DNA of 64,000 bases from Candidatus Woesearchaeota archaeon (GCA_019322895.1 JAHWHZ010000003.1:114492-178491); one strand, 5' to 3'; counted from the first letter of the stretch, positions 5,451 to 58,073 are shown. The notes: generated from the letters alone by a model not told the origin. Made by a program: numbers and translations.

Positions 5451-7496
<2,046 letters not shown>

Positions 7497-11394: not shown

Positions 11395-11395
11395 A

Positions 11396-12324: not shown

Positions 12325-12361
12325 AAAAATTTAAAATAATCAAAGATAAGAGGAGAAACAG

Positions 12362-23443: not shown

Positions 23444-24061
23444 ATGAAAAAGAGGGTGCTATTTATACTGATGACAGTGTTATTTGCTAGTCTTGTTTAT
23501 GCAGCAGATTCAATGCCCCTGACTGATTCTGTAACAGATCTTCCAAAGATAGAGAGGCAGACTAATTTCATGGGAGACAATGTCCATATCCTTCTGATAG
23601 AAGACCTTGCCAAGAAGATGGGTGTGCAGGTAGAAGAATTGGACCAGAAACTGATAGAGATGCAGCAGAGGATTGATGAGCTGGAGCAGATGAAATCATC
23701 TGTGTCTGGCATAAAAACAACTGGACATGCTGTGCAATTAAGTACCATAAATAATGAATTAGGCAGTTTAAGGCAGTCTGTAAATGACATAAAGCAGCTG
23801 AACACAAAGATGCAGATGGATAAAGATGAGGCCAGTCTTGGCGGATACATAATGCTTTTATTGGGATTAAATGGCGCTTTGCTGATTATTGTGTCCAGCA
23901 TCATCATAAAGAAGTCTACGCAAAAAGAGCAGACAAAGACATTGCATGAATATATTGCAAATTGCCTTGATGCAGGAGAATCTGAAAAAGAAATAAAAGA
24001 AGATTTGCTTGCAGAAGGATGGCCTGAAGAAAGAATTGAAAAAGCTCTTGATGAGCTTTAA
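23444..24061 (+). CDS. secreted coiled-coil protein with C-terminal TM anchor
   Basis: Likely start MKKRVLFILMTVLFASLVYA (signal peptide) after the TATA-like gtttaaatataag. Coiled-coil middle, then the TM helix IMLLLGLNGALLIIVSSIII. Confidence 0.6.
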   Translation: MKKRVLFILMTVLFASLVYAADSMPLTDSVTDLPKIERQTNFMGDNVHILLIEDLAKKMGVQVEELDQKLIEMQQRIDELEQMKSSVSGIKTTGHAVQLSTINNELGSLRQSVNDIKQLNTKMQMDKDEASLGGYIMLLLGLNGALLIIVSSIIIKKSTQKEQTKTLHEYIANCLDAGESEKEIKEDLLAEGWPEERIEKALDEL

Positions 24062-25887
24062 TCCACTTTCAGGGCAGCTAATGCTTTTCTCTGGAGTTCT
24101 GGATATTGGAGCGATAAATCTCCGTTTGTTTTCTCTGTTGCGAGAACTCCGTATCTTGTCTGCCCGACTTCATCGCCAGATGCTTTCTCATAAGTGTGCT
24201 TGTTAAGGTTAACGTCAATCGCTGCATCTTCTCTTTCAAACTCAATGTCAATGTTTTCTGGCTGGTTGTAATCCAGTCTAGAAGCTTCTGTGTGGATTCT
24301 TGCAGTGATTGAGTCAGTGCCAGTTGTTGGAACGCTTATTCTCGCACCATATTTATCAACAACATCAACAGATGATCCATCTACTTTTCCATCGCCGTTC
24401 AAGTCAATAGCCAGTTTTCCTGTTGTCATGTCAACATAAGCAAGGAATGTATGATCGCCCCGCTTAATGCTCGCTGTTGCTGAATCAACAGCAATTATTT
24501 CCTCAACAGTGCCTGAATAATCTGTAATTCCGATATCGTAGCCGCCAATGTCAGTATCTTCCTGGAAACTGGTGTATTTGAAGGCAAAAGTGTCGCCGTC
24601 TTTTGACAATATAACTGTGTCGCCGATATTCACGTGATATTCTGTCTCGCTTGAAGATTCTGTAAATATCAGGTTTCCATCTGCATCGCCAAGCTTTAGG
24701 CTGTTTCCATCATTATGAACTAATGGAACATTGGTGTATGTGCTGCCTTCCTTATTTGTAAAAGAGAAAGTGTATGAACTGTCTGTTGCAGTTGATGTGT
24801 ATGTGAAGTTTATGTCAGACTTGTTGAATGGAGTCTCCAGTCCGTCGAAGGTAACGTCAACAATTGCAGCATCTTTGTTTTCAAGCTTATCTACAAGTGT
24901 CTCTCCTTTCTTGACAAATATGTCTTGCTGCTGTGCATTTGTCGGCATTAGCTGGTAAGCCAGCTCATTCAAAGTGATTGTTCCTGCATTTGGGTCGACT
25001 TTTGCCTTGACCCTGTCTTTTGAGTCATTATCAGCTTCTGCAAAAGCAGTGTCGTTAACATTGTCATCTTTGATATTTACTTTTTTTACGCCGACTCCTA
25101 TCTCTGCCATGTCTGATTCAGTGTCAAAGACGCCTGCATATGATCCGTCTGCTAACTGTACAGCATCTCCTGGCTTCATCCAGCCGAGATTTTGATTGTT
25201 TACAATGACATTTGCTTCTATTACACCGTCTGCTGCTGTCCTGCTGCCAGCATAAGTCACTTCATATGATTTTCCATCAAATGTAAAAGTCTGTGTTGGA
25301 GCTATATCACACAGCGGCACGATTACTTCTCCTGTCATCAGGCCAAGATTAACTTCATCAACATCTCCGCCGTTCCAGGTGGTTGTTGCTTTTGTTATCC
25401 TGTATCTTTTTCCGCACATGAAAAGGTTTTTCTGTATCAGGTCTGTCATGTTTCCGTCTGCATCTACGCTTGATGTCAATCCATCTGCAAAAGTCAGTCT
25501 CCATGTGTAGACTGGCTCTGAATGTGCTGCATGCAAAAACACAGCAACATTTCCAGCATCATCTTTTGTTAATTTAGGGGTGATGTTGCCAAAGTCTAGT
25601 GTCTGGCTGCAGTTTACATCTGCCTGCCCGCCATTTCCGTCTGGCTCCTGCATCTTGAATTCTTGAAGAATGTTTGAATAATCATCTTTTGTGAGGGTTC
25701 CAAAATGGTCCTTAAGTGTCTCTTCTAATTCTAATATGGTTGAATTAGAAACAACTGGCCAGTTTTCTTCAGGGTTTACTGCTGCTGTGTTGTCCTTGTC
25801 TTTGCAGCCAGAAGCCAATCCTAATATAATCATCGCTAATGTTGATAATCCTGCTTTCTTGATAAATCCAGTCTTCCTTGTTTTCAT
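24058..25887 (-). CDS. large Thr/Asp-rich surface lipoprotein with Ca-binding-like DxNGDGKVD loop
   Basis: The likely start MKTRKTGFIKKAGLSTLAMIILGLASGC (lipobox) follows a GGGGG/GGTG Shine-Dalgarno. Beta-rich composition. DLNGDGKVDGSSVD is EF-hand/dockerin-like. Confidence 0.65.
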   Translation of the reverse strand: MKTRKTGFIKKAGLSTLAMIILGLASGCKDKDNTAAVNPEENWPVVSNSTILELEETLKDHFGTLTKDDYSNILQEFKMQEPDGNGGQADVNCSQTLDFGNITPKLTKDDAGNVAVFLHAAHSEPVYTWRLTFADGLTSSVDADGNMTDLIQKNLFMCGKRYRITKATTTWNGGDVDEVNLGLMTGEVIVPLCDIAPTQTFTFDGKSYEVTYAGSRTAADGVIEANVIVNNQNLGWMKPGDAVQLADGSYAGVFDTESDMAEIGVGVKKVNIKDDNVNDTAFAEADNDSKDRVKAKVDPNAGTITLNELAYQLMPTNAQQQDIFVKKGETLVDKLENKDAAIVDVTFDGLETPFNKSDINFTYTSTATDSSYTFSFTNKEGSTYTNVPLVHNDGNSLKLGDADGNLIFTESSSETEYHVNIGDTVILSKDGDTFAFKYTSFQEDTDIGGYDIGITDYSGTVEEIIAVDSATASIKRGDHTFLAYVDMTTGKLAIDLNGDGKVDGSSVDVVDKYGARISVPTTGTDSITARIHTEASRLDYNQPENIDIEFEREDAAIDVNLNKHTYEKASGDEVGQTRYGVLATEKTNGDLSLQYPELQRKALAALKVD

Positions 25888-25972
25888 TGTATTCCCCCAC
25901 TTAACCATATTAATGAAGAATAAGAGCATGATTCTTTATAAAGTTGATGTTTTTTTAATTACTTTTCAGTAA

Positions 25973-28900
25973 CTAACCTGTCAGTCTTCTGTAGATGCCT
26001 GGCAGTTTAGCAGGCACGTCTTCCATCCTGTTGACATGCGCAAACCTGAACCCTCTTGCAATCTTTTCCATCACTTCTTTCTCAGCATCTCCTGTAAATA
26101 TCACTATTGGATGCAGCCCTGCATTCCTTGCCTCGCGCAAGGCTTCTCTTGTGTCTGCAATCGCGTATTCTCCTTTATATTCAATATCATTAGGCGCGCC
26201 TTCAAGCAAGTATGCAAGTATCTTGTGTTTTTCAGGACGTCTGCTCAATACATGGGTTGCGTATCTTATTCCTGCACCATCCCTGTTCTGCTGTAGTGCC
26301 TTTAATGAGCCGATTCTCCGCTGTGTTTCACGATTATATTTTTCATTGAATCCTTTTATCTGGTAAACATCAACCTGCTCTCTTGTTTTTCCGCTGTAGG
26401 CAATGATTGAGTATGCATCTCCTGTCTGATCTATTGCTTCGCACATGTAAAGGCAGGTCTTCTTGCTGATGTCTATGAATCTTCCTTTTCTTGGATTGTC
26501 AAGGTCGAGGAATTTTCTCAGAGAGCCGCTCACTTCTGTCAATAAAAGTGTTGCAACAGACCGTTGGTTCTTGTATGTTCTTATGAATAATTTTTCGCTC
26601 GGCGTCACTCCTGCAGCTATCTGGCCTTTTGCTTCCACAATCGCATTAAAGTCAGGCTCTCCTGACAATTGTTTTTTCAGGGCTTTTCGCTCTTCTGGCT
26701 TCAGCCTTTCAAATTCCCTGCGTATTCTCTCAAGATGAACATAATCCTCGTCAAGCACGCTTGTGACAAAATCATTTTCAACAACTTCTATTGGTCTTTC
26801 ATACACAAGAACATAATTTTCTTTAAGCTGTCCTGTGTCTGCGTCCCATTCTGGGAATAGTATCGGCTTTCCTTCCTGCTCGTCAAGAAGTATTTCTTCT
26901 TCTTTTGGGGCCAGGCCGCTTTCCACTGTGACTGCCTCTTCAAGGTTTATTTCAGATACTGGTTCTGGCGGCTCAACACGTTTTGCGACTTCATCTGCTT
27001 TCATTATATCGTAAAGCCGGTCAGTAAGATGCAGCGAATCTATCACAGTTGCAGAAGGCATTCTTATGTGCTCGTCGATTTCTGACTTGAGTTTTGCTGC
27101 CAGCTTGCTTTTTCGTTTTGAGCTTCCTGTCATGCATATCTGGTAAAGCGCCTCAAACGAACTTTTTGGCTTATTGAAGTTTGAAGATATGTATTCATCA
27201 AATATCGCCATATCATTTCTCAGTCCAGGATATGTTTCCAATAGTTTTGACTTCACTCTTGCTGTCTCAAGCATTGTGAATATGAATTTTGCAGCTTCGC
27301 TGTTTGGATAAGTGCTCATCAGTCTTGCAAGAGATACTTCATCAATCTCTTCTTTGCTGCCTGATTTTTCCATGCAGTCTTGGATCAATTCTTTCAATGC
27401 AGATTCATCAATCTCATAAGTCCCGAATTCAAGGAATGCTGTCTGGTAGGATGTCAAGACCTTGTATATGCTGAAGTTCTGTTCGTCATCCTCAAATGCA
27501 TGCACTGATATCGGCAGGACTATCTTGCCTTCCTGCAGCGAGGATTTCAGCTCAACAGAATCTGTTTTCTCGACTGCAAGCCTTTTGTTGGACAGTGCCT
27601 CTGCATATACTTTTAATTTTCCTACAACATCATCAAATTTCAGTCCTTGCAGGAATTTATCCACGCTTATGCTGCTCGTGTAGCTTCTCCTGCCGTAGAA
27701 CTTGACTGCAGCATCAACAGAATCCAGCTTTGCCCCTTCTTCAGCCCATGCCTGGGCAGTCTCAACTCCGAAAGAATCTATCATCTTCGGCAGGTTGTCA
27801 AAATAATTATCAATGAGCTGTTCAAGCTTCTCGCGAAACTCCCGCCATCTTGCTTCATATTTTTCCTTTTCTCTCAAAGTGCTGTCTTGCTTCTTCAAAA
27901 TCATTCTTGTTTTTTCCACATAAGGAGCGAACATTTGATTGAGCTCATCCATGAAGAATCTTTGGTTTTCTTTAGGTATCTGCTGGAATTTGCGCAGAAA
28001 ACTGTAAAGAAGCAAATCTGGCTGCTTTATTTTTGCTGCACTCATAATTGTTTCAGGCCGCACCACATTCAGGTAATAGCAGAAAAATCCGCAGAAATCA
28101 AACAGCACGTCATTTTCAACATCATCTCCTGCCTGCGCGCGTGCCCTGAGAAAAACAAGGTCTGCATCCAGGAATTCGTCTGGCATGTAATTAAGCTTTC
28201 CAGGAAGCTTTCTTACAATAAGCTGTCTCAAGACATCGTCTCTCTCTTGATACGGCTTGCGAAGCTCTATTGCAAGGTCTCTTATGTTGCTTGCATGCTC
28301 AATAGTCTCTTCATCTGCCTGCGCATATAATGGCGCGCTTTGCAAGATATACGAGCTGAGCGAAGACTGGCCTGGTTTTTGCGTGTCCATTTTCTTCTCA
28401 AGCGCATTCACCCAGGCCTGGAAATTTTCTTTGGAAAACTCATCTGCCAGAAGAGACAGCTGATTGGAAAGTGTTGTCAGATGCCTTCGCAGTTCCCTAT
28501 CATTGGAAGTCATTGCATTTTGAAGCAAGTGATCTATAAATTCTTTGAGGAATTTGCCTTGTTTTTTTGTTATCTGGCACAGGCTTGCATAATTGTCAAG
28601 AAACTCTGCCAGGTCCTGCCCTCCATTGCGCACCAGGTGCAGTCCATTCTCCAGAAATGCATCTCCTGCAGAAAACACCTCCTGCTTGTCCTGCCTTTGC
28701 AGTCCAAAGATGTTTTCCAGCGCATTTTTGGTATCATGGAAAAGATTCACATAACTGCGTTTTTCTTTTTCTGCGCGTGTTTTGTGTCCAAAAGCGATTA
28801 AAAGATAAGAAAGATATCTCTTGAATTCATCTGCAGATGTTTTTTGGGCTGCAATGCCCGGTATATGATTAAGGTATGCATGTAAGAGCTTGTCAAACCT

Positions 28901-30818: not shown

Positions 30819-31346
30819 TTAATCTTCGTCGCTTCTCTTTGGTGTAACGTCCATGTATAAGTTTGGAAAAAACGGAGTTCTGCCTGCTTCAAGATTTAAA
30901 AACATCCTCTGCAAGATAACTTCATTATCTATGTTTTCTATCTCTCTTTCCAGTGCTGCTTGAACATCTTCTCTTTCTGTTGCAGATAGATATCTTAATG
31001 TTTCCTCAACATCCAGCTGCAGTCCCTGCTCGCCATACTTGAATGCCCTTTTTCCAGGACCGATCTCAGAATCATATTCCCATCCAGGAATATGTGAAAG
31101 AACATTATCTGGCTGTCTTGATGTGTCTATTAGTGCATAGCGATGCTTGCTCTGCTTTGGGCCAGATATCTCTGCTAGTTTAAAACCTGTATGATTTTCT
31201 TCACCAAAGTAAATATTTCGCCTAAGCTGGCTTTGCAGCAAAGCTGTATGAGCATCTCCGCCATCTTCTTGATTAGGCCAGAATTTAGTTATATCTTCAC
31301 CGTCATTGATTCTATCTTCAATATTTTCATCATGATATCTTGCCAT
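30819..31346 (-). CDS. hypothetical acidic protein, first gene of the CbbQ/CbbO-like operon
   Basis: 175 aa with no motif recognised. Sits 21 nt upstream of the AAA+ gene on the same strand. Confidence 0.55.
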   Translation of the reverse strand: MARYHDENIEDRINDGEDITKFWPNQEDGGDAHTALLQSQLRRNIYFGEENHTGFKLAEISGPKQSKHRYALIDTSRQPDNVLSHIPGWEYDSEIGPGKRAFKYGEQGLQLDVEETLRYLSATEREDVQAALEREIENIDNEVILQRMFLNLEAGRTPFFPNLYMDVTPKRSDED

Positions 31347-31619
31347 CGTGTCTTTCCTCCCAAATATCTCTTGTTTTTAAAGTATAAATAACTTTCTATA
31401 TACTTATAGGTAACAGTGACCATTTATAAAGCTTATGGTTTTTTAACTACTTTTCAGTGTCAAAAACAAAAGATTTAAATACTACTAGTGTTTACCTATT
31501 ATTACCATGAAACGAGTTGATTGTATTCATTGTGGATAAACTGAATTCTTATTTTATTAGTTCCAGCTCTATGATGCGAAGTGATTGTATTCATCATCGC
31601 TAGTTCTAAATTCATTCTT

Positions 31620-31687
31620 GGCGGCAGTGGCGTAATGGTAGCGTATGGGACTGTGGCTCCCATGGCGCGGGTTCGATTCCCACCTAA
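31620..31687 (+). pseudogene. truncated tRNA-His relic (5' 62 nt identical to the functional copy, no 3' acceptor strand)
   Basis: 31620-31681 is identical to 31815-31876. The sequence then diverges (cccacctaac vs cccgcctgcc), so the acceptor stem cannot close. Confidence 0.8.
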
Positions 31688-31802
31688 CTTTGAAAAAGTT
31701 AGGATCAAAATGCGTTCTTTGTTCAGGCTCCAGAAGCAATCTATAGGCTGTTTGCTCTGCAAACAGGGATTCAACTCTTCTCTCACCCTCACAATATCAC
31801 GC
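31683..31802 (+). mobile_element. R-element copy 2 (hairpin cctaactttgaaaaagttagg plus core 31711-31802) between the tRNA-His relic and the intact tRNA-His
   Basis: Aligns with 5333-5450 and with the reverse complement of 57912-58032. Confidence 0.6.
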
Positions 31803-31814
31803 AATATTAATTAT

Positions 31815-31886
31815 GGCGGCAGTGGCGTAATGGTAGCGTATGGGACTGTGGCTCCCATGGCGCGGGTTCGATTCCCGCCTGCCGCC
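31815..31886 (+). tRNA. tRNA-His: tRNA-His (GUG) with genome-encoded G-1
   Basis: 8-bp acceptor GGCGGCAG/CTGCCGCC, D arm GGCG..., anticodon arm TGGGA-CTGTGGC-TCCCA (anticodon GTG), T arm GCGGG-TTCGATT-CCCGC. Confidence 0.9.
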
Positions 31887-31936
31887 CTTGATTCTCAAAA
31901 AGATTTATATATAATAATGAATGCAGGTGAATTAAA

Positions 31937-42074: not shown

Positions 42075-42150
42075 TTCTTTAATTTGAACCGAAAATCCTC
42101 CGGAAAATTCTCAGCAAGGCATATAAAGAGTAAAAATAAAGAAATAAGCA

Positions 42151-42184
42151 TCGCTTAACCAGGCGACGCAGAGAGCTTACACCT
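42151..42184 (+). pseudogene. relic of the 5' half (positions ~8-41) of the adjacent tRNA
   Basis: tcgcttaaccaggcgacgcagagagcttacacct versus tRNA 42231-42264 tcgcttaatctggtagagcggagagcttacacct (27/34 identical). There is no acceptor strand. Confidence 0.6.
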
Positions 42185-42223: not shown

Positions 42224-42338
42224 GCCGGCGTCGCTTAATCTGGTAGAGCGGAGAGCTTACACCTCTCTGCCCGAAAGGGTTTCTGGGTTCAAAACCAGGA
42301 TGAGGTAATCTCTCTGGGTGAAAATCCCAGCGCCGGCG
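42224..42338 (+). tRNA. tRNA-Val: intron-containing tRNA, anticodon UAC (Val) by loop reading
   Basis: Acceptor GCCGGCG/CGCCGGC, D arm GCTT-AATCTGGTA-GAGC, anticodon arm GAGAG-CTTACAC-CTCTC. The T arm CTGGG-TTCA[...]AAT-CCCAG is interrupted by a ~31-nt insert that folds as bulge-helix-bulge. An extra GCCC-GAAA-GGGT hairpin sits in the variable region. Confidence 0.6.
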
Positions 42339-43770: not shown

Positions 43771-44172
43771 ATGGTAATCTTATTTGATCGATTTAATCTG
43801 CCGTCAGATGTTTTTGAAGTGATATTTTCTACTGAGCAGCAGAGAATTGTGGCAAAAGAATTGATTAAATTCATGGCAGACCATAACTGCGAGATTACCA
43901 AGACACAGATGAGCTTCTTTGCAACGCAGCTGCACGACGGCAAATATGAGTGTGTTCTCGACGAGGGGCCGCACAAGGGAAAGAAAGCAAAACTGAGTTA
44001 CAACAAAAGGCAGTTTTATGACAGGATTCTTACGCCGATGAAATCAATGGGCCTGATTGACTACGACCTTTACAAGAAGACATACAAGATTTCCAACAAG
44101 TTCTCTAATGACCTTATGAAGATAGGCCTGATGTGGAAGGCAGAATTAAGGAAGTATGGCATCAATAGTTGA
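43771..44172 (+). CDS. hypothetical protein, possible winged-helix DNA binder
   Basis: 133 aa. Its promoter/leader (cacaacatttatat...tattccc...tagagaaaggtg) is shared with the Rrf2 gene at 58.4 kb. C-terminal YDRILTPMKSMGLIDYD is wHTH-like. Confidence 0.45.
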   Translation: MVILFDRFNLPSDVFEVIFSTEQQRIVAKELIKFMADHNCEITKTQMSFFATQLHDGKYECVLDEGPHKGKKAKLSYNKRQFYDRILTPMKSMGLIDYDLYKKTYKISNKFSNDLMKIGLMWKAELRKYGINS

Positions 44173-44199
44173 TGTTTTTTAAGATTATCCTCTATTTCT

Positions 44200-44475
44200 T
44201 TAAATAGGAAGATAAAGAGGTTCTCTATTGCTGCTGCGCGCTGTTTTTTTAACTGTCTTGTATAACTTCCGGATTTTCTCTCCGCTGAATGTCTTGACTG
44301 CACGCTCTCCTTCAAATACCCTCAACAGATAAAGCCCGCGGCCTGTTTCACTCAAGCCAAGCACGATTTCTCCATCAACCTCCTTATAGAAATTAAAGCG
44401 AAAAATACCCATTCCCCGCTTTTTTTTTGCTGCTGCCATACCAATGCCCTGAAAGAAATGACAGCATATTTTCAA
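44200..44475 (-). CDS. hypothetical protein (91 aa)
   Basis: Track ORF only. Start uncertain. Confidence 0.3.
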   Translation of the reverse strand: MKICCHFFQGIGMAAAKKKRGMGIFRFNFYKEVDGEIVLGLSETGRGLYLLRVFEGERAVKTFSGEKIRKLYKTVKKTARSSNREPLYLPI

Positions 44476-44598
44476 GAGTTAAATTGCTCATATCCATTAT
44501 ATCATCCCCCACAAAACAAGAAAAAATGTTAAGAATATTTAAAGGTTTTCTAAAAGGATAAAATGGTAAATTTGGTCGCTGCGCAGAATTATCATCTC

Positions 44599-44640
44599 TT
44601 AGTTACTTTAAAGTAGTTACGAAACACAACATTTATAAAT
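44599..44640 (+). promoter_or_regulatory. palindrome (ttagttactttaaagtagttac) plus TATA box (tttataaat)
   Basis: The same palindrome-then-TATA layout occurs at 45793, 47202 and 48486. Lies 22 nt upstream of the 44662 start. Confidence 0.5.
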
Positions 44641-44661
44641 AAGCAAAACATCATATGCACT

Positions 44662-45417
44662 ATGATATTAGACAATCTTGAAGCCCGGTTAAAAAAGAAC
44701 GGCACTCTTGAAGCATTTAATAAAGATACTGCTGAAATAGATGAAGATGTTAGAAATCTACTAAAATTGCTCTTTGGTGTTGCTTCTGAATTAGATAACG
44801 CAAAACAAGAATATGTGATTCATGGAGGATACGCAGTATTGGTTCATCTGGCAGATTGTTTAGGAACTAAAGCCATACCTAAATGGCGAGGGTCTCACGA
44901 CCTAGATTTAGTTGCTAATGAAAGAATAGTGACTATGCTTAAGAGCTATCTTAATATCCTTAGCGATAGGGAAAGCCAAAGAGTCAAAGGAAAAAGAACC
45001 TTAAAAGTCCTACTTGAAGAATCTGAAAAACCGTATAAATTAGACTTGAGAATGATTGAACAGTTCGCAGACGATTCTGCAGAGACATACCGTGGCGAAG
45101 TAGATACTTTAACTGTGTATGGCATCTCTGTTAGAGTTCCTAAACTAATGCGATTATTAAAAGATAAACTGAGTGTTTCAAGAAATCTTGAAAGAGATAA
45201 CGTAGACATCTTAAATTTGATTGGTGTGCTTTATCTTAGAAAAACTCCTGCAGAAAGAGTAATTGGCGGACTTGATTTAAAGGAACGAAAAAGATTGTAT
45301 TCCTTGATTGCTGCCGACTCTGCCAAGGAAAAATTTATAAAGGAGAATGTCTTGATAGAGGTTAGTGACAAGTATCTGCTGCGTTTTAAAAAACAACTTA
45401 AAAAACGAATAAAATGA
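44662..45417 (+). CDS. AbiEii/AbiGii-like nucleotidyltransferase (toxin-type NTase fold)
   Basis: VIHGGYAVLVHL...RGSHDLDLV (the GG...DxD NTase core) and the C-terminal KDKLSVSRNLERDNVDILNL pattern typical of AbiEii (DUF1814). Confidence 0.55.
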   Translation: MILDNLEARLKKNGTLEAFNKDTAEIDEDVRNLLKLLFGVASELDNAKQEYVIHGGYAVLVHLADCLGTKAIPKWRGSHDLDLVANERIVTMLKSYLNILSDRESQRVKGKRTLKVLLEESEKPYKLDLRMIEQFADDSAETYRGEVDTLTVYGISVRVPKLMRLLKDKLSVSRNLERDNVDILNLIGVLYLRKTPAERVIGGLDLKERKRLYSLIAADSAKEKFIKENVLIEVSDKYLLRFKKQLKKRIK

Positions 45418-45785
45418 AAATACAAACATATCAAGGAGAAAATATTAGAGCCATCTTAGATAAAGCCCCTTATGATTGGAGAGCTACAGGGACATATGGT
45501 GTAGAAAGATCATTAAAAAATGGCAAGATATCGAACATATTACTAATCTATGTCAATTCCAGAGATTTAAAAGAGTGGGATAAATATCTAACAGCTAATT
45601 CTGTCAAATCAACAAAAGTTTTGCCCGATCTAAAACTTGTCGGTGTTGATACCCTTCCAGAATCTTCAAAAAAAGATAGAAACGTAGTGGATATAAGCCA
45701 CCTTATTGCTGATTTAGAGAAAGTCGCTCCACGGTATCGTGAAACACATCCTGAAATCGTAGAGCATTTAAGCGATGTTGCTTAA
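45414..45785 (+). CDS. hypothetical protein, translationally coupled to the AbiEii-like gene
   Basis: 4-nt ATGA overlap with the upstream gene. No motif recognised. Confidence 0.5.
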   Translation: MKIQTYQGENIRAILDKAPYDWRATGTYGVERSLKNGKISNILLIYVNSRDLKEWDKYLTANSVKSTKVLPDLKLVGVDTLPESSKKDRNVVDISHLIADLEKVAPRYRETHPEIVEHLSDVA

Positions 45786-45795
45786 TTCTTAGTCA
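45782..45795 (-). repeat. 14-nt stump of a map 3'-end relic
   Basis: ttaattcttagtca is identical to 49768-49781. It encodes TKN* in map sense and is fused directly to the palindrome tcactaaatagtga. Confidence 0.5.
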
Positions 45796-45830
45796 CTAAA
45801 TAGTGATTACAAACCAAAAGCTTTATAAAG
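45793..45830 (+). promoter_or_regulatory. palindrome (tcactaaatagtga) plus TATA box (ctttataaag)
   Basis: Same layout as 47202 and 48486. Confidence 0.5.
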
Positions 45831-45875
45831 GGCGTTTGCCTTTAGTAAATCAATTACCTTTAGAGGGGTGGAAAA

Positions 45876-46556
45876 ATGAGTGAAGAAAAATTAGAAAATA
45901 TGATTCAAAATGGACGAGCAGTAATTGATGCTTCTCCTGATGGTTTTATTTGGTGTCCTTTAGATGATGGATTTATGTGTGACTTAGACAGAAGGGCAGA
46001 GTTAATAGAAAAATATAATTCTGGAGATACTGACGAGCTAAATAAAGAGCTGCTGCCTGGAGCAGTGTATGCAACCTTTGAAGAAATAGAAGGCGCAAGC
46101 AGGTCAAGCGGTGGAGTTGTCAAGATTGATCCTGTAACAGGCAAAATCGTAAGTCTTCATACCCAAGATGAAGGAACTCGAACATACTTGACAGCGGCTT
46201 TTGGAGGCCCGCATATTAACTTTTTTGCATTTAATGATAAAAAGCCAACAGAAAAACCAACAGTCACAATAAAGATTGAATACAACGCTAAAACCGGCAA
46301 ATGGAACTTTGAAGGGCCGCTTCTAAAAACACAAAAAAGCGACTTGATTAAGGGGTTCTTAAATATACATCCCTTTGCAAAAGATTCTGGGAAGACAAAT
46401 CAGCAGGACAAATATACTATCGAACTGAACTGGTACCACAAGACAGATCATGCTGAAATTGTCAGCGACAATACAGGAAATCCCCACTATAGAAATATCC
46501 TTTTAGAAGGCGCGTGGGCAGAATTAAGAAGCGCGGAATTAAAAGGTAAACTTTAG
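45876..46556 (+). CDS. hypothetical protein (226 aa)
   Basis: The Shine-Dalgarno GAGGGGTGG lies upstream. No motif recognised. Confidence 0.55.
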   Translation: MSEEKLENMIQNGRAVIDASPDGFIWCPLDDGFMCDLDRRAELIEKYNSGDTDELNKELLPGAVYATFEEIEGASRSSGGVVKIDPVTGKIVSLHTQDEGTRTYLTAAFGGPHINFFAFNDKKPTEKPTVTIKIEYNAKTGKWNFEGPLLKTQKSDLIKGFLNIHPFAKDSGKTNQQDKYTIELNWYHKTDHAEIVSDNTGNPHYRNILLEGAWAELRSAELKGKL

Positions 46557-46569
46557 GAGGAAAACCAAA

Positions 46570-47094
46570 ATGACTGAAGAAAAATTTATCCCAAAAAAAG
46601 ACTTTAAAGAAGATCTCACGCAAACTTACTTACTAGGTAAAGAGAACTTTCAAAATCCTGAAAGTCCTATTGTAAAACATGAAACCTTATGCAATAAATT
46701 GTTTGCAATGGAACTTGCACCTTCTATTGACATGTCAAACGTAAGAGCAGAAGACAGGCCTTATGTTCACGAGGTTGTGCAATACCTTAGACAGAATGGT
46801 TTAAGACCAGAACTAAAAGGCAGTGCGCTTATGGGAAACATGTATGGTGATATTGACATTCTTGCAACAGGAAGTCTTGAAGATCTAACAAACGTGACAC
46901 GGGCGCTTAATGGAGCACAAGATATTGCAAATCCATTCTACAGCACAGCTGCAGACGGTGAAGAGTATACTGTTGCGCATGAAGGCGAAAATGTTGCTTA
47001 CATGCACGAGAATCTTGCACAGCTGTTCAATATACTTGTCGGCGACACAAAAATTCATCTCGGCCTTAAAGGATCAGGCGTGATAGGAAGTTAA
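46570..47094 (+). CDS. Pol-beta-superfamily nucleotidyltransferase-fold protein
   Basis: KGSALMGNMYGDIDILATGS matches the GS-x(n)-DxD minimal NTase motif. AGGAGG Shine-Dalgarno upstream. Confidence 0.5.
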   Translation: MTEEKFIPKKDFKEDLTQTYLLGKENFQNPESPIVKHETLCNKLFAMELAPSIDMSNVRAEDRPYVHEVVQYLRQNGLRPELKGSALMGNMYGDIDILATGSLEDLTNVTRALNGAQDIANPFYSTAADGEEYTVAHEGENVAYMHENLAQLFNILVGDTKIHLGLKGSGVIGS

Positions 47095-47103
47095 TTTTTT
47101 TAT

Positions 47104-47199
47104 TTATTCTATTTTTGTCAGAATCTCAACTTTATCGTCTACAAGCAATGTATGTTCTGCCTGTGATACAATTCCTTTGTTTTTCTCGACCAAAGGAAA
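47104..47199 (-). repeat. relic A of the map 3' terminus
   Basis: In map sense it reads FPLVEKNKGIVSQAEHTLLVDDKVEILTKIE*. The native map end is FPPLPEKNKGIVSQAEHTLLIEDKVEILTKNTTFK*. Confidence 0.85.
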
Positions 47200-47201
47200 A
47201 A

Positions 47202-47243
47202 TTAATCACTATTAAGTGATTAGAAAACCGAAGATTTAAATAC
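47202..47243 (+). promoter_or_regulatory. perfect palindrome (ttaatcact atta agtgattaa-type) plus TATA box (atttaaatac)
   Basis: TAATCACT/AGTGATTA 8-bp arms. TATA about 25-35 nt upstream of the 47268 start. Confidence 0.55.
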
Positions 47244-47267
47244 TTTTGAATATTAACATGTAGCACC

Positions 47268-48038
47268 ATGAGCAAAGATGAATCTGCGGAATTTCAAACA
47301 AAGGAATTTCAAGAGGATGAATTTAGACAGGTAATTGAAAGGTCTAAAGAATTAATAGCCAGAGGGTATTTTACTGGAATAAATTTTCTGCAATCAGAGG
47401 AGCCTCTGCCGACAAATTCTATAATCGTACACTTTCTTCATGATAGCAAACAGCATTTGGATGAAATCATATCCACTGTGCCTGCTGCGCGTTTGGTAGT
47501 CCCTAGATTCACTTGCTATATGTTAGATCCTAAATATTTTCAAAAGCCCAATTTTGCTGAAGAATACAAAGATGCGGTTTTTTTCGATTCTAATTTCAAG
47601 ATAATTACAGTTGAGGATGCGATTGCAAACCCTTTGGGTACGACAGTACTCAATAGAGAGTTGGATTTAATAGTCCCTCTTCACGACAGTAAAGATTTAT
47701 ACGATACTGTGCATGCTTTGCAAGAGGCAGACGAAGAAGGCCCGTATCAATGGATAGATCCAGTTCTTATTGTAAAAACAAAAACGCCCGTTACTGCTCT
47801 AGAAGGTTTTGTTGACAAACAGTACGTTAGTATCGCAAAAGAAAGAGAAGAGTTTTATTCAATCTTAACCGACGAGGAAAGAACAGATGCCCTATCAAAA
47901 TATTTAGATAAATTATGTGCTGCCACAAAAATAGGGACATTACAAAGAAGCGATATTGTTTTCAATACAAGTCAGGTAAACGAAAAGTTTGCAGACTTTC
48001 TAGTTAATATTCAGAACCAGCTTCAAATCTTTGAATAG
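47268..48038 (+). CDS. hypothetical protein (256 aa)
   Basis: Track ORF with no motif recognised. Confidence 0.55.
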   Translation: MSKDESAEFQTKEFQEDEFRQVIERSKELIARGYFTGINFLQSEEPLPTNSIIVHFLHDSKQHLDEIISTVPAARLVVPRFTCYMLDPKYFQKPNFAEEYKDAVFFDSNFKIITVEDAIANPLGTTVLNRELDLIVPLHDSKDLYDTVHALQEADEEGPYQWIDPVLIVKTKTPVTALEGFVDKQYVSIAKEREEFYSILTDEERTDALSKYLDKLCAATKIGTLQRSDIVFNTSQVNEKFADFLVNIQNQLQIFE

Positions 48039-48321
48039 TTTCTCTCAACTTTTGTTTAGAATAAACATCAGTAAGTTTTTGAGGTCCTCCGCCACGCACT
48101 CCTTTTTCAAACGCCTCTTGTAATGGATTAGAAATACCGTTTTTATGTATGCGGTACTTATATTCTATTTCTCCCCAGCCATATCGCCATTCACTAATAC
48201 ATCCGTCATTGGGCAATTCTGCAAGAACTTCAATTAATTTTGGTAGATTCTCCTGACTAATACAGTCTAAACCTTCTATTTCTGGATCTTCTGATGCTTT
48301 TCTTAGTGTTTCTACTAACAT
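48004..48321 (-). CDS. hypothetical protein (105 aa), convergent and overlapping 47268..48038 by 35 nt
   Basis: Track ORF with no motif recognised. Confidence 0.4.
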   Translation of the reverse strand: MLVETLRKASEDPEIEGLDCISQENLPKLIEVLAELPNDGCISEWRYGWGEIEYKYRIHKNGISNPLQEAFEKGVRGGGPQKLTDVYSKQKLRETIQRFEAGSEY

Positions 48322-48393
48322 TTTCCTATGTGTTATATGCCTCCAGAAGTATATAAATCTTTTGAAATAAATCTGGCAACATGCGTAAAATAA

Positions 48394-48473
48394 CTAATTC
48401 TTAGTCAGAATCTCAACTTTATCATCTACAAGCAAAGTATGCTCTGCCTGAGAGACAATTCCTTTGTTTTTTT
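48394..48473 (-). repeat. relic B of the map 3' terminus
   Basis: In map sense it reads QKNKGIVSQAEHTLLVDDKVEILTKN*. Confidence 0.85.
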
Positions 48474-48485
48474 GTTAAACAACAA

Positions 48486-48537
48486 TTAATTACTATTTAG
48501 TAGTTATAAACCAGAAGATTTAAATATCCTGCTAATT
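48486..48537 (+). promoter_or_regulatory. near-palindrome (ttaattactatttagtagttataa) plus TATA box (atttaaatat)
   Basis: Same layout and position relative to the relic as at 47202. Confidence 0.5.
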
Positions 48538-48549
48538 TAGAAATACTCA

Positions 48550-49407
48550 ATGATACTTATCCATGATTTGACAGGGATTTGTGAAGATAAGAGAAAAGAA
48601 GTGATTGCCTGCTTAGACGAATTATTGACATATAGAGATTCAGATGGTTTGTTAGTTCCGGTGATTTCTGGATACAATTGGTACGCAAAATTAACAAAAT
48701 CTGACCGCGTAATTACTTTCTCTAATATTCATGAAACAGAATCCTACAAAGAAGATATGTTAAGAGATTTAGAAGAATTAGGATATGACCATAAAGATAT
48801 ACTAAATCAAATAAGGGAAAAAGCAGGTGCGTTCATACATGACCTTGAATTCAGACTAAGAGATGATGACGGCAATCTGCTCCCTGGATTGAGAATAAAA
48901 GACACTCGAACAGGAAAATACATTGACTTGGAGAACTACCAAGATGCCTTGATAAATTACCAAGAATTTACTGATGCAGAAGGTTGTTTGATTGATGAAG
49001 ACCAAGGGTGGGAGTTAGATATGCCATTTAAAGGGGAGCGAGAATTAATGAGTCTTGTGAATCTCTTTCTAAAAAAATCCGGAAAGCATATTTATGATGT
49101 AAGAGGCAACATAATCAAAGAAACAGACGAAGAACAAGACGCGCGAGCTCCTTGGTCTGATGCATACAAAGTTCCTGTTTTGCTCTTAGGCGAAACCGCT
49201 TTGCGTTATGCAGATAAATTGCCTCAGTTTGTTCCAGTAACTAAATTTGCACTAAAAGAAAACAACAACGAAATAAGTTTCATAATCCATAACAACATAA
49301 AATATTTAAAAAGCTTGAATCAATATACTCAATTACTTAGATTTGGATTTGCTGAAGAAGAATGTCTGGGGAATAAACCGTTCATAAGGTATGTTGACGA
49401 AATATAA
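48550..49407 (+). CDS. hypothetical protein (285 aa)
   Basis: Track ORF with no motif recognised. Confidence 0.55.
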   Translation: MILIHDLTGICEDKRKEVIACLDELLTYRDSDGLLVPVISGYNWYAKLTKSDRVITFSNIHETESYKEDMLRDLEELGYDHKDILNQIREKAGAFIHDLEFRLRDDDGNLLPGLRIKDTRTGKYIDLENYQDALINYQEFTDAEGCLIDEDQGWELDMPFKGERELMSLVNLFLKKSGKHIYDVRGNIIKETDEEQDARAPWSDAYKVPVLLLGETALRYADKLPQFVPVTKFALKENNNEISFIIHNNIKYLKSLNQYTQLLRFGFAEEECLGNKPFIRYVDEI

Positions 49408-49454
49408 ACAAATAAGTCGATACCTTTAAATAGTTAAATAACTATGTAATAACC

Positions 49455-49736
49455 ATGCCAACAGAAACAATCGTAAAAGATCCTAAGCGAATGACCCTTT
49501 CTGAAATAAAGCAGACACTAACAAATATTATCGCTTATGAGCAAGAAACAAGAGAGTCTTGGGTAGTCCTTAAAATGCAAAACAGGCAATTAGGCGCGAT
49601 TCACTATGTAACATCACAAAAAGAAGCAGAAAAAGAGATTAATGCACCAGTATCCAGCAATCCAAGAACGTGTGAATGGGGCTTAAAATTTTATTCTCGT
49701 TCTGATTTAGAGCAATTAAAAGAAAAATATAGTTAA
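49455..49736 (+). CDS. hypothetical protein (93 aa)
   Basis: The TATA-like cctttaaatag and the palindrome atagttaaataactat lie just upstream. Confidence 0.5.
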   Translation: MPTETIVKDPKRMTLSEIKQTLTNIIAYEQETRESWVVLKMQNRQLGAIHYVTSQKEAEKEINAPVSSNPRTCEWGLKFYSRSDLEQLKEKYS

Positions 49737-49767
49737 ATAAGAAAAACAAAATTATATTCTTGGATTT

Positions 49768-49823
49768 TTAATTCTTAGTCAAAATCTCAACTTTATCATC
49801 TATACGCAATATGCACTCTGCCT
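49768..49823 (-). repeat. relic C of the map 3' terminus (more diverged, truncated)
   Basis: In map sense it reads AECILRIDDKVEILTKN*. Similarity ends exactly at the stop codon of the HEPN gene. Confidence 0.7.
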
Positions 49824-50246
49824 TTACTCCTCGACTAATGACATTAAGAACTGGATAATCTTCATTATTTCTTCCTTGTTTTTCTCATAAAAAGAGATAT
49901 CAACTGCTTCACCGTAATAATTTAGCCTGTTCCTTAAGTAACTCATTTCTGAAATCAAATTAGCTTCAAACTCGCGGTCTGAATGCTTTCGGTAAAAATA
50001 AGAGATGAGGCATTGATGATTCTTTGATTTCAAACCGTGTTTTAGCAATAATGCCACAAGCAATTCCTTGATAATCTCATAATAACCCTCAATGATAAAA
50101 GAAACATTGTCTTTATTAACTTGCTGGCTGTCAATAAATTTTCTTCTTTTACTGACTGTATCGAGTATGGAATTGATCTTTTCCTTGTCAGGAGTCACGG
50201 TTCTGATAAATTGCCGCTTGCATTCGCCCCAATCCATCAAATTCAT
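49824..50246 (-). CDS. HEPN-domain protein (partner of the MNT nucleotidyltransferase)
   Basis: 140 aa, all-helical. The MSYLRNRLNYYGE region resembles the RNxxxY/H HEPN motif. 4-nt overlap with the upstream NTase gene. Confidence 0.6.
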   Translation of the reverse strand: MNLMDWGECKRQFIRTVTPDKEKINSILDTVSKRRKFIDSQQVNKDNVSFIIEGYYEIIKELLVALLLKHGLKSKNHQCLISYFYRKHSDREFEANLISEMSYLRNRLNYYGEAVDISFYEKNKEEIMKIIQFLMSLVEE

Positions 50247-50749
50247 CTTATTTTAAAAAACCCCTCAATCTTGATCCCGTTAACCACGTTATTAAATAAG
50301 TTGTCTGGCAAATCATTGATATCCCGCTCAGCAAAAAGCTGGATTTTGTGGCCTAGTATCTTCTCAAATTGGGCCAGGTCCAAATCCTGCTTCTTTAAGG
50401 CTTCAACAAACAAGTCAATATCACTTTCTTTAGCTGATTCGCCTTTCCTGAAACTGCCAAAAAGAATTATGCACGCAGGCCTTAACTGCTCAGCAAGATA
50501 TGCTATCAAGCCGCTTTCAAATAACTCCTTGATATAAAAAAAGGTCTTTTCTGTCTTAAACAAAGCAGTATTGGCTGCCTTGTTTTCTTTAGTCACCCTC
50601 CTGCTCTTTTTAAGCTCTCTTAGATACTTGTGAACAGTTGATTTTGGAATCCTTGTCTTTTTGGCTAGTTCCCGGACTGTAAACCGCTTCTCAGGATACT
50701 CGTAAAAAATCCTCAGAATTTTGTCCAGATTATTGTACTTTAGTCCCAT
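50243..50749 (-). CDS. wHTH-fused minimal nucleotidyltransferase (MNT)
   Basis: N-terminal wHTH (FTVRELAKKTRIPKSTVHKYLRELKK), then the canonical IILFGSFRKGESAKESDIDLFV NTase motif. Confidence 0.8.
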   Translation of the reverse strand: MGLKYNNLDKILRIFYEYPEKRFTVRELAKKTRIPKSTVHKYLRELKKSRRVTKENKAANTALFKTEKTFFYIKELFESGLIAYLAEQLRPACIILFGSFRKGESAKESDIDLFVEALKKQDLDLAQFEKILGHKIQLFAERDINDLPDNLFNNVVNGIKIEGFFKIR

Positions 50750-50781
50750 TTTATGTCCTTAAGTCCCAATAAATGGACTAA

Positions 50782-51711
50782 CTATTTAAATGTTGTGTTC
50801 TTGGTCAGAATCTCAACTTTATCCTCTATCAGCAAAGTATGCTCTGCCTGTGAGACAATTCCTTTGTTTTTCTCTGGCAGTGGAGGAAACTGCTTTATTA
50901 TGTCGTTTTTCAGAAGTTCTCTTAAAGCAAAATTAGTCTTTCCTAAGCCGAATTTTCTTGAAAGCCATCTTGTTGTAAATGGCAAAGTTTTGTAGTTCTC
51001 TGCAACAAATTTCAGGATTTCCCGTGCAAAAGGGCTGCGGACAGGCTTTGGATTTGTGAGCATAAAGATGTTTGCTCTTTCTTTTTCATATATCATTCCT
51101 GCCCCGTTTGTTGCAAACGGCTCTATTGCGATTATCATACCTTTTTTTAATTCTGTCTTGTCTCCTGTGTCAAAATTAGGTATTGTTGGTTTTGTGTGGA
51201 TGTCATAATAATCCAGCCCATGGCCAGATAAGTTTTTTACAGGCGAGAATCCATAGCTTGATATTGTCTCTTGTATTGTCTTGCCTATCTCTCCCAAGGA
51301 AGTTCCTATCTGGACTATCTTTATTGCATTGTTCAATGCCTCTCTTGATGCTTTCACTAATTCACTCCATTTTCCGCTTAAGTCAACTGTCAGTGCATTG
51401 TCGCCAATAGCGCCACTGACATGAACACCAACATCCAAGCAGGCCACCTGGTTCTCAAAGATGGTCTTGTCATCTGGGTCTGCGCAGTAATGTGCAGCGA
51501 TATTATCGCAGCTTATCTGCGCTGGAAAAGCAATCTGCCCTCCTAAGTCAATTATTTTTTTCTCTATCATGTCAGAGACTTCAAGCAAAGAAGCTCCTTT
51601 CTTGATTAATCCGCCGCCATATTCAAGGGCTTGCGCTGCTATTTTTCCTGCTTTTCTCCAGTGCTCTAAATCCTCTGGAGTTAGGCCGTCTAAGACACTT
51701 TTCTCTTCCAT
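50782..51711 (-). CDS. map: type 2 (archaeal/eukaryotic-like) methionine aminopeptidase
   Basis: IAAHYCADPDD, LDVGVHVSGAIGD, NLSGHGL, IIAIEPFAT and SQAEHTLLI supply the five metal-ligand regions in the expected order. Confidence 0.92.
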   Translation of the reverse strand: MEEKSVLDGLTPEDLEHWRKAGKIAAQALEYGGGLIKKGASLLEVSDMIEKKIIDLGGQIAFPAQISCDNIAAHYCADPDDKTIFENQVACLDVGVHVSGAIGDNALTVDLSGKWSELVKASREALNNAIKIVQIGTSLGEIGKTIQETISSYGFSPVKNLSGHGLDYYDIHTKPTIPNFDTGDKTELKKGMIIAIEPFATNGAGMIYEKERANIFMLTNPKPVRSPFAREILKFVAENYKTLPFTTRWLSRKFGLGKTNFALRELLKNDIIKQFPPLPEKNKGIVSQAEHTLLIEDKVEILTKNTTFK

Positions 51712-56759: not shown

Positions 56760-57911
56760 ATGAATATTTCAAATATCTTGATGATAGCATTCTTGATAAT
56801 CCTTAGTCTTACGATATTCATATTCAGGAAGAAATTCAAGTTCCACAGATTTGCAAAGATATTCTATTTTGGGATGTACAAGACAAAAGTGGGATTAAGG
56901 TTGATGGATAAGTGGGCAAATAAGTATCCGAGGATATTAAGAAGATTGTGCTATGCTGCGATTGCAGTCGGATTCATCGGCATGGTTATAGTTGTAGTTG
57001 ACTTGGCCAAATCACTTTATTCAATACTTGCAGGAACATCCACCTTGACAGTTGGACTGGTATTGCCTGTTGAAGCCAAAGGAATCTTTTATGTTCCTTT
57101 TATTTACTGGATTATTGCGGTTTTTGCAATTGTTGTTGTGCACGAGTTTGCGCACGGATTGATTGCAAGGCTGCACAAGATCCGCGTGAAAAGCTCTGGC
57201 GTTGCTTTCTTGGGAGCGATAATCCCTATCATTCCAGCTGCTTTTGTTGAGCCAGATGAAAAGCAGTTAAGAAAAGCTTCAAGATTCAAGCAGTTGAGTG
57301 TCTATGCAGCAGGGCCTTTTGCAAACATTATTTTCGGCTTTGCTTGTTTAGGAATATTTGCATTACTGCTTAATCCTCTTGCAGCCTCTGTATATAATTT
57401 AGAGGGTGTCAAGGTAAATGATTTCATGGGCGTTGACAGCCCTGCAGAGATAAGCGGCATGGCAGCAGGAGATGTGATCACACAAATCAATGACAATGAA
57501 ATAAAGAATACAGATGATTTCATTAATGCGATTGACAAGGCAAATCCAGGTGATGTTGCAGAGATACAGACAAAAGAAAAAACTTATGAAGTATTGTTAG
57601 AAGAAGATCCTGTTGAAAAAGATGCTTTCCTTGGAATCTGGGTGTCAACAGAAAAGTCAATGAAAAACAAGAACCCGTTCTCTTATCTTGTAATATGGCT
57701 GACTGACTTGTTTTACTGGTTATTCTTGCTAAACTTGGGAGTAGGATTGTTCAACCTGATTCCAGTCGGCCCGATTGACGGCGGAAGGATGCTCCAGACT
57801 GTTTTAGAAAAAGTGATGCACACTAAAAAAGCAACAAAAGTGTGGCATGCTGTTAGTTTTGTTGTGCTGGCGATAATTTTAAGTAATATAATTTATGCAT
57901 TTGTGGCATAA
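56760..57911 (+). CDS. site-2 protease (M50 family) with PDZ domain
   Basis: HEFAHGLIA (HExxH) within a TM helix, a PDZ-like GMAAGDVITQINDNEI segment, and C-terminal NLIPVGPIDGG. Confidence 0.9.
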   Translation: MNISNILMIAFLIILSLTIFIFRKKFKFHRFAKIFYFGMYKTKVGLRLMDKWANKYPRILRRLCYAAIAVGFIGMVIVVVDLAKSLYSILAGTSTLTVGLVLPVEAKGIFYVPFIYWIIAVFAIVVVHEFAHGLIARLHKIRVKSSGVAFLGAIIPIIPAAFVEPDEKQLRKASRFKQLSVYAAGPFANIIFGFACLGIFALLLNPLAASVYNLEGVKVNDFMGVDSPAEISGMAAGDVITQINDNEIKNTDDFINAIDKANPGDVAEIQTKEKTYEVLLEEDPVEKDAFLGIWVSTEKSMKNKNPFSYLVIWLTDLFYWLFLLNLGVGLFNLIPVGPIDGGRMLQTVLEKVMHTKKATKVWHAVSFVVLAIILSNIIYAFVA

Positions 57912-58040
57912 GCGCGATATTGTGAAGGCGAGAGAAGAGTTAAATCCATGTTTGCGTGAGCAAACATCATATCGATTGCTTCTGGAGCCTGAACAAAGAG
58001 CGCCCTTTGATCCTAACTTTTTTAAAGTTAGGCGATCATA
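57912..58040 (-). mobile_element. R-element copy 3 (core 57912-58003, hairpin 58012-58032), inverted relative to copies 1 and 2
   Basis: Begins at the base after the S2P stop codon. Flanked by 33-nt direct repeats at 57879-57911 and 58041-58073. Confidence 0.65.
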
Positions 58041-58073
58041 TTAAGTAATATAATATACGCATTTGTGGCTTAA
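58041..58073 (+). repeat. displaced copy of the last 33 nt of the S2P protease gene
   Basis: 30/33 identical to 57879-57911. All three differences are synonymous, and both copies read LSNIIYAFVA*. Confidence 0.85.

Follow-up and report, generated by a model that had tools for sequence, protein, structure and literature searches.

Stacked two-gene cassettes separated by copies of the map 3' end in a Woesearchaeota-like archaeon

A 6.6-kilobase (kb) island lies between map, the gene for a type-2 (archaeal) methionine aminopeptidase, and open reading frame (ORF) 133 with ftsZ in a 64,000-nucleotide (nt) stretch of DNA from Candidatus Woesearchaeota archaeon (GCA_019322895.1 JAHWHZ010000003.1:114492-178491; hereafter the window). 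The host is a Woesearchaeota-like DPANN archaeon. The island, from 44.2 to 50.8 kb, consists of five stacked two-gene cassettes, X1-X5, most of which are still followed by a leftover copy of the map tail. Related genomes hold this site empty or occupied, with differing cassettes in differing order, and the cassettes have been exchanged horizontally together with their map-tail copies, here called relics. The explanation toward which we lean is that circular cassettes would enter at the map terminus through a Campbell-type single crossover, preferably by host homologous recombination.

Displaced map termini and the cassettes between them

The target gene map occupies the minus strand at 50782-51711. 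By Pfam it is full length (Peptidase_M24, 5e-32), and its orthologues in Woesearchaeota-like metagenome-assembled genomes (MAGs) are 53-95% identical. The last 56-96 nt of map are present three more times in the same orientation, along with a 14-nt stump, and these copies bracket units of 1.0-1.4 kb. Beyond the native terminus (M0, 50782-50880), the minus strand carries relic C (49768-49823, 56 nt), relic B (48394-48473, 80 nt, 93% identical to the native end), and relic A (47104-47199, 96 nt, with a PLVEKNK...LVDD allele). Relic C begins right after the stop codon of the HEPN-like gene of X1 (49824-49826), as the initial annotation had described for the copy nearest map. The stump (45782-45795) corresponds to the last 13-14 nt of a map relic and is fused to the X4 palindrome.

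A repeat search of the window recovered four in-register copies, at 47111-47184 (89%), 48398-48471, 49772-49845, and 50798-50871 (93%); the copy at 49772-49845 is 68% identical over the full 74 nt, with true homology limited to ~56 nt. The spacings between terminus copies are 1287, 1374, and 1026 nt. A blastn-short alignment of the native end against the window agrees, with E = 7e-26 for relic B, 1e-21 for relic A, and 1e-5 for relic C, and it returned no further match with E < 0.05 in the 64 kb. The three same-orientation copies and the stump of the initial annotation are confirmed. The repeat is absent elsewhere in the window and from a viral contig collection.

Relics A, B, and C all read in frame to their own stops (LIFPLVEKNKGIVSQAEHTLLVDDKVEILTKIE, QKNKGIVSQAEHTLLVDDKVEILTKN, and VKAECILRIDDKVEILTKN, respectively), with translations as first reported. 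Compared with the native end, 9 of the 14 altered codons in A and B are synonymous and the remainder are conservative (I>V, E>D, P>V), again as first described; three codon changes are common to A and B. With changes that are mostly synonymous or conservative, and with another lineage's allele in A, the relics look like the ends of functional map alleles. The stump, identical to the end of relic C, has an E of only ~0.02 on its own in blastn-short. In the related contig L040, however, a full 56-nt relic ends in the stump's junction, GACTAAGAATTAA joined to GCAACATC, beside the same cassette gene. Because this complete relic has exactly the stump's X5 junction, the stump is a true relic end.

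At the native terminus the window's map has no stop codon of its own. Its last five codons (NTTFK) are extra and run into the X1 promoter, ending at a TAG inside the TATA box of this cassette (50782-50797). The map genes of L001, L006, and L040 have their own stop followed by [ag]gaaaaa(g) before the X1 start C[AG]CAA[CT]ATTTAAATA; these relatives thus keep a separate map stop and an 8-nt spacer where the window has a deletion. The odd tail exists because the map stop was lost at the X1 junction, so that reading continues into the X1 TATA box. NTTFK is therefore not the ancestral C-terminus, a small correction to the initial annotation. The stop regions of paired map copies likewise differ, being TAG, TAA, or read-through.

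Read in the orientation of map, the order is map, X1 (MNT, HEPN), relic C, X2 (ORF93, ORF285), relic B, X3 (ORF105, ORF256), relic A, X4 (ORF174, ORF226), stump, X5 (ORF123, ORF251), a frameshifted remnant, ORF133, and ftsZ. The copies first noticed are real, but the ladder is longer than initially thought, with a fifth cassette at 44594-45781.

Cassette X1 (49824-50797, minus strand) runs in the same direction as map and has its own TATA box and operator-like palindrome. Its MNT gene (50243-50749), encoding a winged helix-turn-helix plus a nucleotidyltransferase, matches Polbeta (1.5e-8), NTP_transf_2 (2e-7), and an N-terminal HTH in Pfam. The HEPN-like partner (49824-50246) overlaps the MNT gene by 4 nt, and its Pfam match is weak (E = 0.049; at 14 bits it stays below the cut-off of 22). 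By these matches X1 is a predicted MNT/HEPN toxin-antitoxin-like pair.

The other four cassettes are laid out on the plus strand. X2 (48474-49767) comprises a palindrome (48487-48506), a TATA box (48519-48526), ORF285 (48550-49407), and ORF93 (49455-49736). X3 (47200-48393) has its palindrome at 47203-47222, TATA at 47235-47242, and ORF256 at 47268-48038, with ORF105 (48004-48321) on the minus strand, convergent with and overlapping ORF256. In X4 (45796-47103) the palindrome (45790-45809) and TATA (45822-45829) precede ORF226 (45876-46556) and ORF174 (46570-47094), and in X5 (44594-45781) the palindrome (44600-44619) and TATA (44632-44639) precede ORF251 (44662-45417) and ORF123 (45414-45785).

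Recognizable domains are confined to X1; the eight orphan proteins of the other cassettes gave no match in Pfam, PADLOC, or NCBIfam. A structural model of ORF256 reached a predicted local distance difference test score (pLDDT) of 87 and found no fold match in PDB. A mobility protein common to the cassettes was sought by all-against-all BLASTP of the cassette proteins, and none emerged; the eight orphans show no resemblance among themselves. The only clear match between cassettes was ORF174 with ORF155 of L001 (68%), which reflects an X4-like relation. In three scans of viral contigs for a viral origin, neither the map-terminus pattern nor ORF256 or ORF285 found a counterpart. A candidate sixth, decayed relic left of X5 (44500-44600) was not significant against shuffles and was discarded.

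The far boundary of the island (43771-44494) is formed by ORF133 (43771-44172, plus strand) and the frameshifted remnant (44200-44494, minus strand). The remnant is a homologue of ORF122 (122 amino acids, aa) of L002, the ancestral neighbor of map, and a poly-A run marks the site of its frameshift. Either the gene has become a pseudogene or the frameshift is a sequencing error.

After the stump, relic A, and relic B, the plus strand presents the same series: a 20-bp palindrome (TAAYYACT-N4-AGTRRTTA), ~13 nt, a TATA box, and two ORFs. The initial annotation had noted this series after A and B; besides the one after the stump, a fourth module begins at 44594. Each of X2-X5 thus has a palindrome and TATA directly upstream of its first ORF, although the promoters are predicted from sequence only. 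The same palindrome-N13-TATA module also stands outside the island, at 25956-25975 and 31423-31458, where it precedes a 623-aa ORF (24058-25929, minus strand) and a 175-aa ORF (30819-31346, minus strand). This arrangement suggests that one regulator may control the cassettes together with these two genes. The 623-aa and 175-aa ORFs flank a gene cluster with VWA and MoxR-like AAA genes.

Within the island the palindrome occurs on one side only of each cassette, at a fixed distance from the TATA box. We considered the palindrome as a recombination site and downgraded that possibility, as it is one-sided in every cassette and recurs in two promoters outside the island. Because the same module serves those two outside genes, the palindrome is more likely an operator. 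A different palindrome (GTATATACGTATATAC) with a TATA box forms modules at 6565 and 7856 of L030, a 'Nanoarchaeota' MAG (6565-9664), and the part downstream of it, including the TATA box, occurs a third time at 9624. These modules surround an X3 homologue, and cassette-type promoter modules with other palindromes therefore exist.

Occupied and empty sites in relatives

Relatives were collected by a map-protein search of Woesearchaeota-like MAGs and metagenomes, and L040 was added by an MNT-protein search. Synteny from map to ORF133-ftsZ is kept in all close relatives. The sites in L002/L007 (map 84% identical, aa) and L009 (78%) are essentially empty, with at most one small gene between map and ORF133. 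L006 (map 95% aa, ftsZ 99.7%) reads map, X2, relic, X1, relic, ORF133. The order of X1 and X2 is thus reversed relative to the window, X2 lies directly beside map, and X3-X5 are absent.

In L001 (map 85%) the order is map, X1, relic, an X4-related cassette, a 203-nt relic, X3, and relic. The X4-like cassette contains ORF155, 68% identical to ORF174, and carries the 203-nt map relic. A second target is used in the same contig: at 15656-16611 of L001, a 104-nt copy of the ORF133 3' end (97% identical) brackets 850 nt of inserted DNA, in which there are two ORFs of 109 and 101 aa. The longer of the two proteins shows a D...E-x-K pattern that, judged by eye only, resembles a PD-(D/E)xK nuclease. 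L040 (map 85.5%) reads map, X1, a 56-nt relic, a partly deleted X5, and ORF133, with a homologue of ORF123 (81% aa) following the relic. More distant map loci have no relics.

An assembly artefact can be dismissed, because the independently assembled L022 matches the window over 15.7 kb at 100% identity. In seven further assemblies, contigs of this strain (identity of 99.5% or more) break off inside the island's first 1.2 kb: three of them stop at 49572-49588, another three at 50169, and the last at 50677. On the other side they extend at most 10 kb. These ends suggest that cassette variants co-exist in those samples. Short, cassette-sized contigs are common for the MNT family, but such a size is the norm in that collection.

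The cassettes move, as is evident from the different sets held by related genomes; individual cassettes are present in some and absent from others. Sequence identities point the same way. Between the window and L001, core genes are 77.0% (map), 80.9% (ftsZ), and 80.4% (ORF133) identical at the nucleotide level, whereas X1 is 90.5-93.4% and X3 ~91.5% identical, and X3 of L001 also lies between two map relics. The relation to L006 is the reverse, with core genes at 89-96% and X2 at only 78-86%. Since cassette and core identities disagree, the cassettes have been exchanged horizontally.

Cassette ends are constant. X1 starts with C[AG]CAA[CT]ATTTAAATA, its own TATA box, and ends with the HEPN stop (TAA) followed by AGG[CT]AGA of a map copy, and the same X1 ends are found in L001, L006, and L040. 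X3 starts right behind a map stop codon with TTATTTTACG and ends with promoter, palindrome, a 14-nt spacer, and then GAGAAAAAC of the next map copy.

Relics travel with the cassettes. The last 34 nt of the relic behind the HEPN gene in L040 are identical to those of relic C in the window, but differ from L040's own map end at about one-third of positions (read by eye); core genes of the two are only 72-83% identical. The PLVEKNK of relic A is the native map allele of L001, L002, and L008, where the window's map has PLPEKNK, and the LVDD variant of relics A and B is native in the map of L016. These findings fit the insertion, by single crossover, of cassettes that would carry map sequence with them, and they argue against duplication of the host allele at insertion. 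At the same time, the middle of every map copy in L001 is of the L001-clade type, even beside the horizontally shared X1 and X3, so that the copies must also undergo homogenization, through either variable crossovers or gene conversion. Serial insertion of DNA carrying a map terminus, as the initial annotation proposed, is supported by the empty sites, the differing ladders of L006, L001, and L040, the cassette/core incongruence, the relic A allele, and the relic identity between L040 and the window.

Gene pairs homologous to X3 also occur at other DPANN loci, one of them within a ladder of tRNA-Lys 3' ends. In this contig (L032; ERZ27293411 k141_635173; 4014-12562), the intact tRNA (4014-4089) is accompanied by 3'-end relics of ~35-45 nt at 7934, 9152, 11148, and 12405, which bracket cassettes of 1.2-2.0 kb. 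The first cassette is the X3 homologue (ORF256/ORF105); PP-loop ATPase-like and 2-thiouracil desulfurase genes occur in others. Repeats thus flank X3 homologues at map and at tRNA-Lys; none were found in L033, L035, L036, or L037.

A proposed mechanism and its alternatives

In the explanation we favor, the interval between map and ORF133/ftsZ would be an insertion hotspot holding five non-autonomous two-gene cassettes, each of which brings a map copy, covering the final 56 to ~200 nt of the gene, at one end. A circular form of the cassette would recombine with the chromosomal map terminus by a single, Campbell-type crossover. This would leave map intact, with part of its terminus now derived from the cassette, and would push the former terminus downstream as a relic. 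Repeated insertion would build the ladder, and recombination between relics could delete or reorder cassettes. X2-X5 would bring the shared promoter module (20-bp palindrome, ~13 nt, TATA), with the palindrome most simply serving as an operator. The circular intermediate and the enzyme are the parts that we infer. For the latter, host homologous recombination appears slightly ahead, with a trans-acting site-specific recombinase nearly as likely. Homologous recombination is favored by the variable relic length (56-203 nt), by the second target at the ORF133 end in L001, and by the mosaic or gene-converted appearance of the L001 map copies.

Several observations weigh against this explanation. 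Given how short and alike the map copies are, crossover points within them can be placed only tentatively. In several genomes the switch from host-like to cassette-like sequence at X1 falls near the same Thr-Lys codons, which would fit a fixed site-specific crossover as well as one inherited original junction. X4 keeps only a 14-nt stump; homologous recombination would need more than this, so that a later deletion would have to be assumed. Element E, a structured non-coding sequence found elsewhere in the window, is flanked by gene-end duplications of ~10, 43, and 69 nt, which hints at a target-duplicating insertion process that the model does not require. As for the enzyme, no recombinase domain was found among 50 window ORFs (the cassette genes and every ORF of 175 aa or more that clearly overlaps no other) tested by Pfam only, a set in which seven ORFs outside the island matched nothing in Pfam at all, nor in gene tables reaching ~3 kb and ~7 kb past the window ends, ~75 kb in total. 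The absence of a recombinase in or beside the ladder, as first noted, holds within this scope.

A possible but less probable account is that the circular cassette enters the map terminus through a site-specific recombinase acting in trans on a core site in the final ~56 nt of map. Candidates would be the host XerA and a tyrosine or serine recombinase whose gene lies either in another part of the genome or on a helper element, and the cassettes would be satellites, like integrase-less islands, IMEX elements, or dif modules. Displaced 3'-end copies with a restored target are the classical signature of tandem integration by integrases, known from tRNA islands, tycheposons, and archaeal tandem elements, and the L032 ladder places an X3 homologue at a tRNA 3' end, a typical integrase target. 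The 56 nt common to all relics, the identical X1 junction positions in four genomes, and the mere 14 nt of identity at the X4 stump speak for it as well. Against it stand the Pfam and gene-table result just given, a fourfold variation in relic length, and an unrelated second target in L001. Nor would a fixed crossover predict the homogenization of L001 map copies to the host type, and no dif-like 11-6-11 site was found, the only palindrome being one-sided and shared with non-island promoters.

The duplications could instead arise from the target itself, if staggered breaks tens to hundreds of nt apart were filled in around inserted DNA that lacks any map copy. The ~118-nt element E, flanked by duplications of three unrelated targets, would be explained in this way, as would the host-clade-like map copies that flank X1 and X3 in the window and in L001 although the cassettes themselves are ~91% identical. 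We nonetheless consider this unlikely. The L040 relic equals window relic C over 34 nt and is unlike L040's own map end, relic A has another lineage's allele, and the paired copies differ in their stop regions. Relic C, the youngest by position, is also the most diverged from the native end, while B is 93% identical to it. We know of no transposase that produces duplications of 50-200 nt. Least probable is that the ladder represents decayed remains of full-size integrated viruses or plasmids that lost their integrase and were trimmed to ~1 kb. Integrase loss after integration and tandem integration have both been reported for archaeal elements (PMC8371274), but here the unit sizes are uniform (1.0-1.4 kb), the ORFs are intact with their own promoters, integrase fragments are absent, and the same units with the same ends recur in differing order in four genomes. 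The lack of any match to ORF256, ORF285, or the map-terminus pattern in the viral contig collection also argues against decay.

Tentatively, the locus may exemplify a non-integron form of cassette capture in DPANN archaea, in which two-gene cassettes with operator-controlled promoters would travel with a portable host gene terminus and need no recombinase in cis. Such cassettes would be stacked, reordered, and traded between lineages, with map, tRNA-Lys, or ORF133 supplying the terminus. The enzyme could be the host homologous recombination machinery or one not yet described, and the same machinery could be the source of the long target duplications around element E.

In DPANN archaea, whose genomes are tiny and contain few recognizable mobile elements, little is understood of the ways in which genes are acquired and exchanged. 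The island offers a concrete route: gene pairs of kb size, none equipped with a mobility gene, move between lineages whose core genes are only ~77-81% identical and accumulate downstream of an essential gene that stays intact. Should homologous recombination through a carried target end be responsible, a variable island could be built by very simple means; should it be a trans-acting recombinase, the cassettes would be its substrates and could help to find it. The defined junctions of the locus, relic-relic and empty site, lend themselves to a direct search of reads.

Other repeats of the window lie outside the island. Element E (~118 nt) stands directly after three gene ends, at 31686-31813, 57912-58030, and 5338-5447, and also occurs in L001; with flanks, the copies span 31619-31887, 57869-58073, and 5338-5460 in the window and 7536-7722 in L001. 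The flanks duplicate the local target over 69 nt at tRNA-His (99%), 43 nt at the end of an M50 protease gene (88%), ~10 nt at the gyrB end, and 32 nt in L001 (97%). Through the tRNA-His duplication, the intact gene is preceded, 195 nt upstream, by a second, truncated tRNA copy. The element is predicted to fold with 34 base pairs; in a comparison of just four copies, 5 of these pairs show compensatory changes. The tRNA-His copy of the element gave no Rfam family match. Element E may be unrelated to the cassettes; alternatively, it may indicate that long gene-end duplications are a general outcome of insertion in this lineage. An 89-nt repeat found three times with 76-82% identity (two in tandem at 4792-4968, one 4.3 kb off at 9171-9259) may be a small RNA family, and a 37-nt repeat (78% identity) occurs at 42148-42184 and 42228-42264, 80 nt apart and just downstream of ftsZ.

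Comparison with known systems

The nearest known analogues of the island are tandem integrations at tRNA genes (tycheposon islands) and dif modules. The proposed insertion also parallels 'pop-in/pop-out' or Campbell-type integration of a circle, in which one crossover within a shared segment leaves a copy of it on either side of the insert. The island resembles it in having a segment duplicated around each insert, with a variable duplication length. To our knowledge, Campbell-type integration has not been described as a natural, repeated stacking of cassettes with a portable terminus of an essential gene. Minimal mobile elements are likewise exchanged between conserved flanking genes, with different cassettes in different strains.

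Integrons, which are reported in Archaea (PMC9668308), share with the island small cassettes at one site whose order and content vary among relatives, and a cargo without assigned function that includes a predicted toxin-antitoxin-like pair. The term 'integron-cassette-like' in the initial annotation is apt for the unit size and the missing recombinase; the defining features of integrons are not found. No IntI or Phage_integrase domain occurs in the scanned window ORFs or the flanking gene tables. The island boundaries, folded as single-stranded DNA without an attC covariance model, give short local hairpins (z -0.1 to -2.3) in place of attC-like folds. Each cassette has its own predicted promoter (TATA in X1; palindrome and TATA in X2-X5) with no common Pc, most cassettes contain two genes, and the repeat is the end of a coding gene. 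With no IntI, no attC-like fold, and a promoter per cassette, we reject an integron.

The dif modules of Acinetobacter plasmids and the IMEX elements use the host Xer recombinase (PMC6449649, PMC13141974). They too are small modules, often toxin-antitoxin, without their own recombinase, and are shuffled between replicons by the host enzyme. However, a dif module has a 28-bp XerC/D site (11-6-11) at each end, whereas the boundary in the island is a 56-203-nt copy of the map terminus. A dif/Xer system is disfavored, as the island contains no 11-6-11 site and its sole recurrent palindrome is 20 bp and one-sided; the dif of this lineage was not identified.

The stacking itself has precedent in the tRNA islands and tycheposons of Prochlorococcus, where successive insertions push older ones outward and are separated by partial target copies (bioRxiv 10.1101/2020.12.28.424599), and the same logic is established for archaeal tandem integrated elements (PMC8371274). 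As in tRNA islands and tycheposons, direct repeats of the target 3' end flank the units, the target gene is restored or intact, empty and occupied sites exist among relatives, and content varies between strains. Unlike those islands, the units here are only 1.0-1.4 kb with two genes, domain searches of the cassette proteins found no integrase or integrase fragment, and the target is the protein-coding map of a DPANN archaeon, with displaced copies of 56 to ~200 nt. Stacking by successive insertion with partial target copies in between is thus an established logic. What is unusual is its use with minimal two-gene units lacking an integrase, on a shared promoter/operator backbone, at an essential protein-coding target in a DPANN archaeon.

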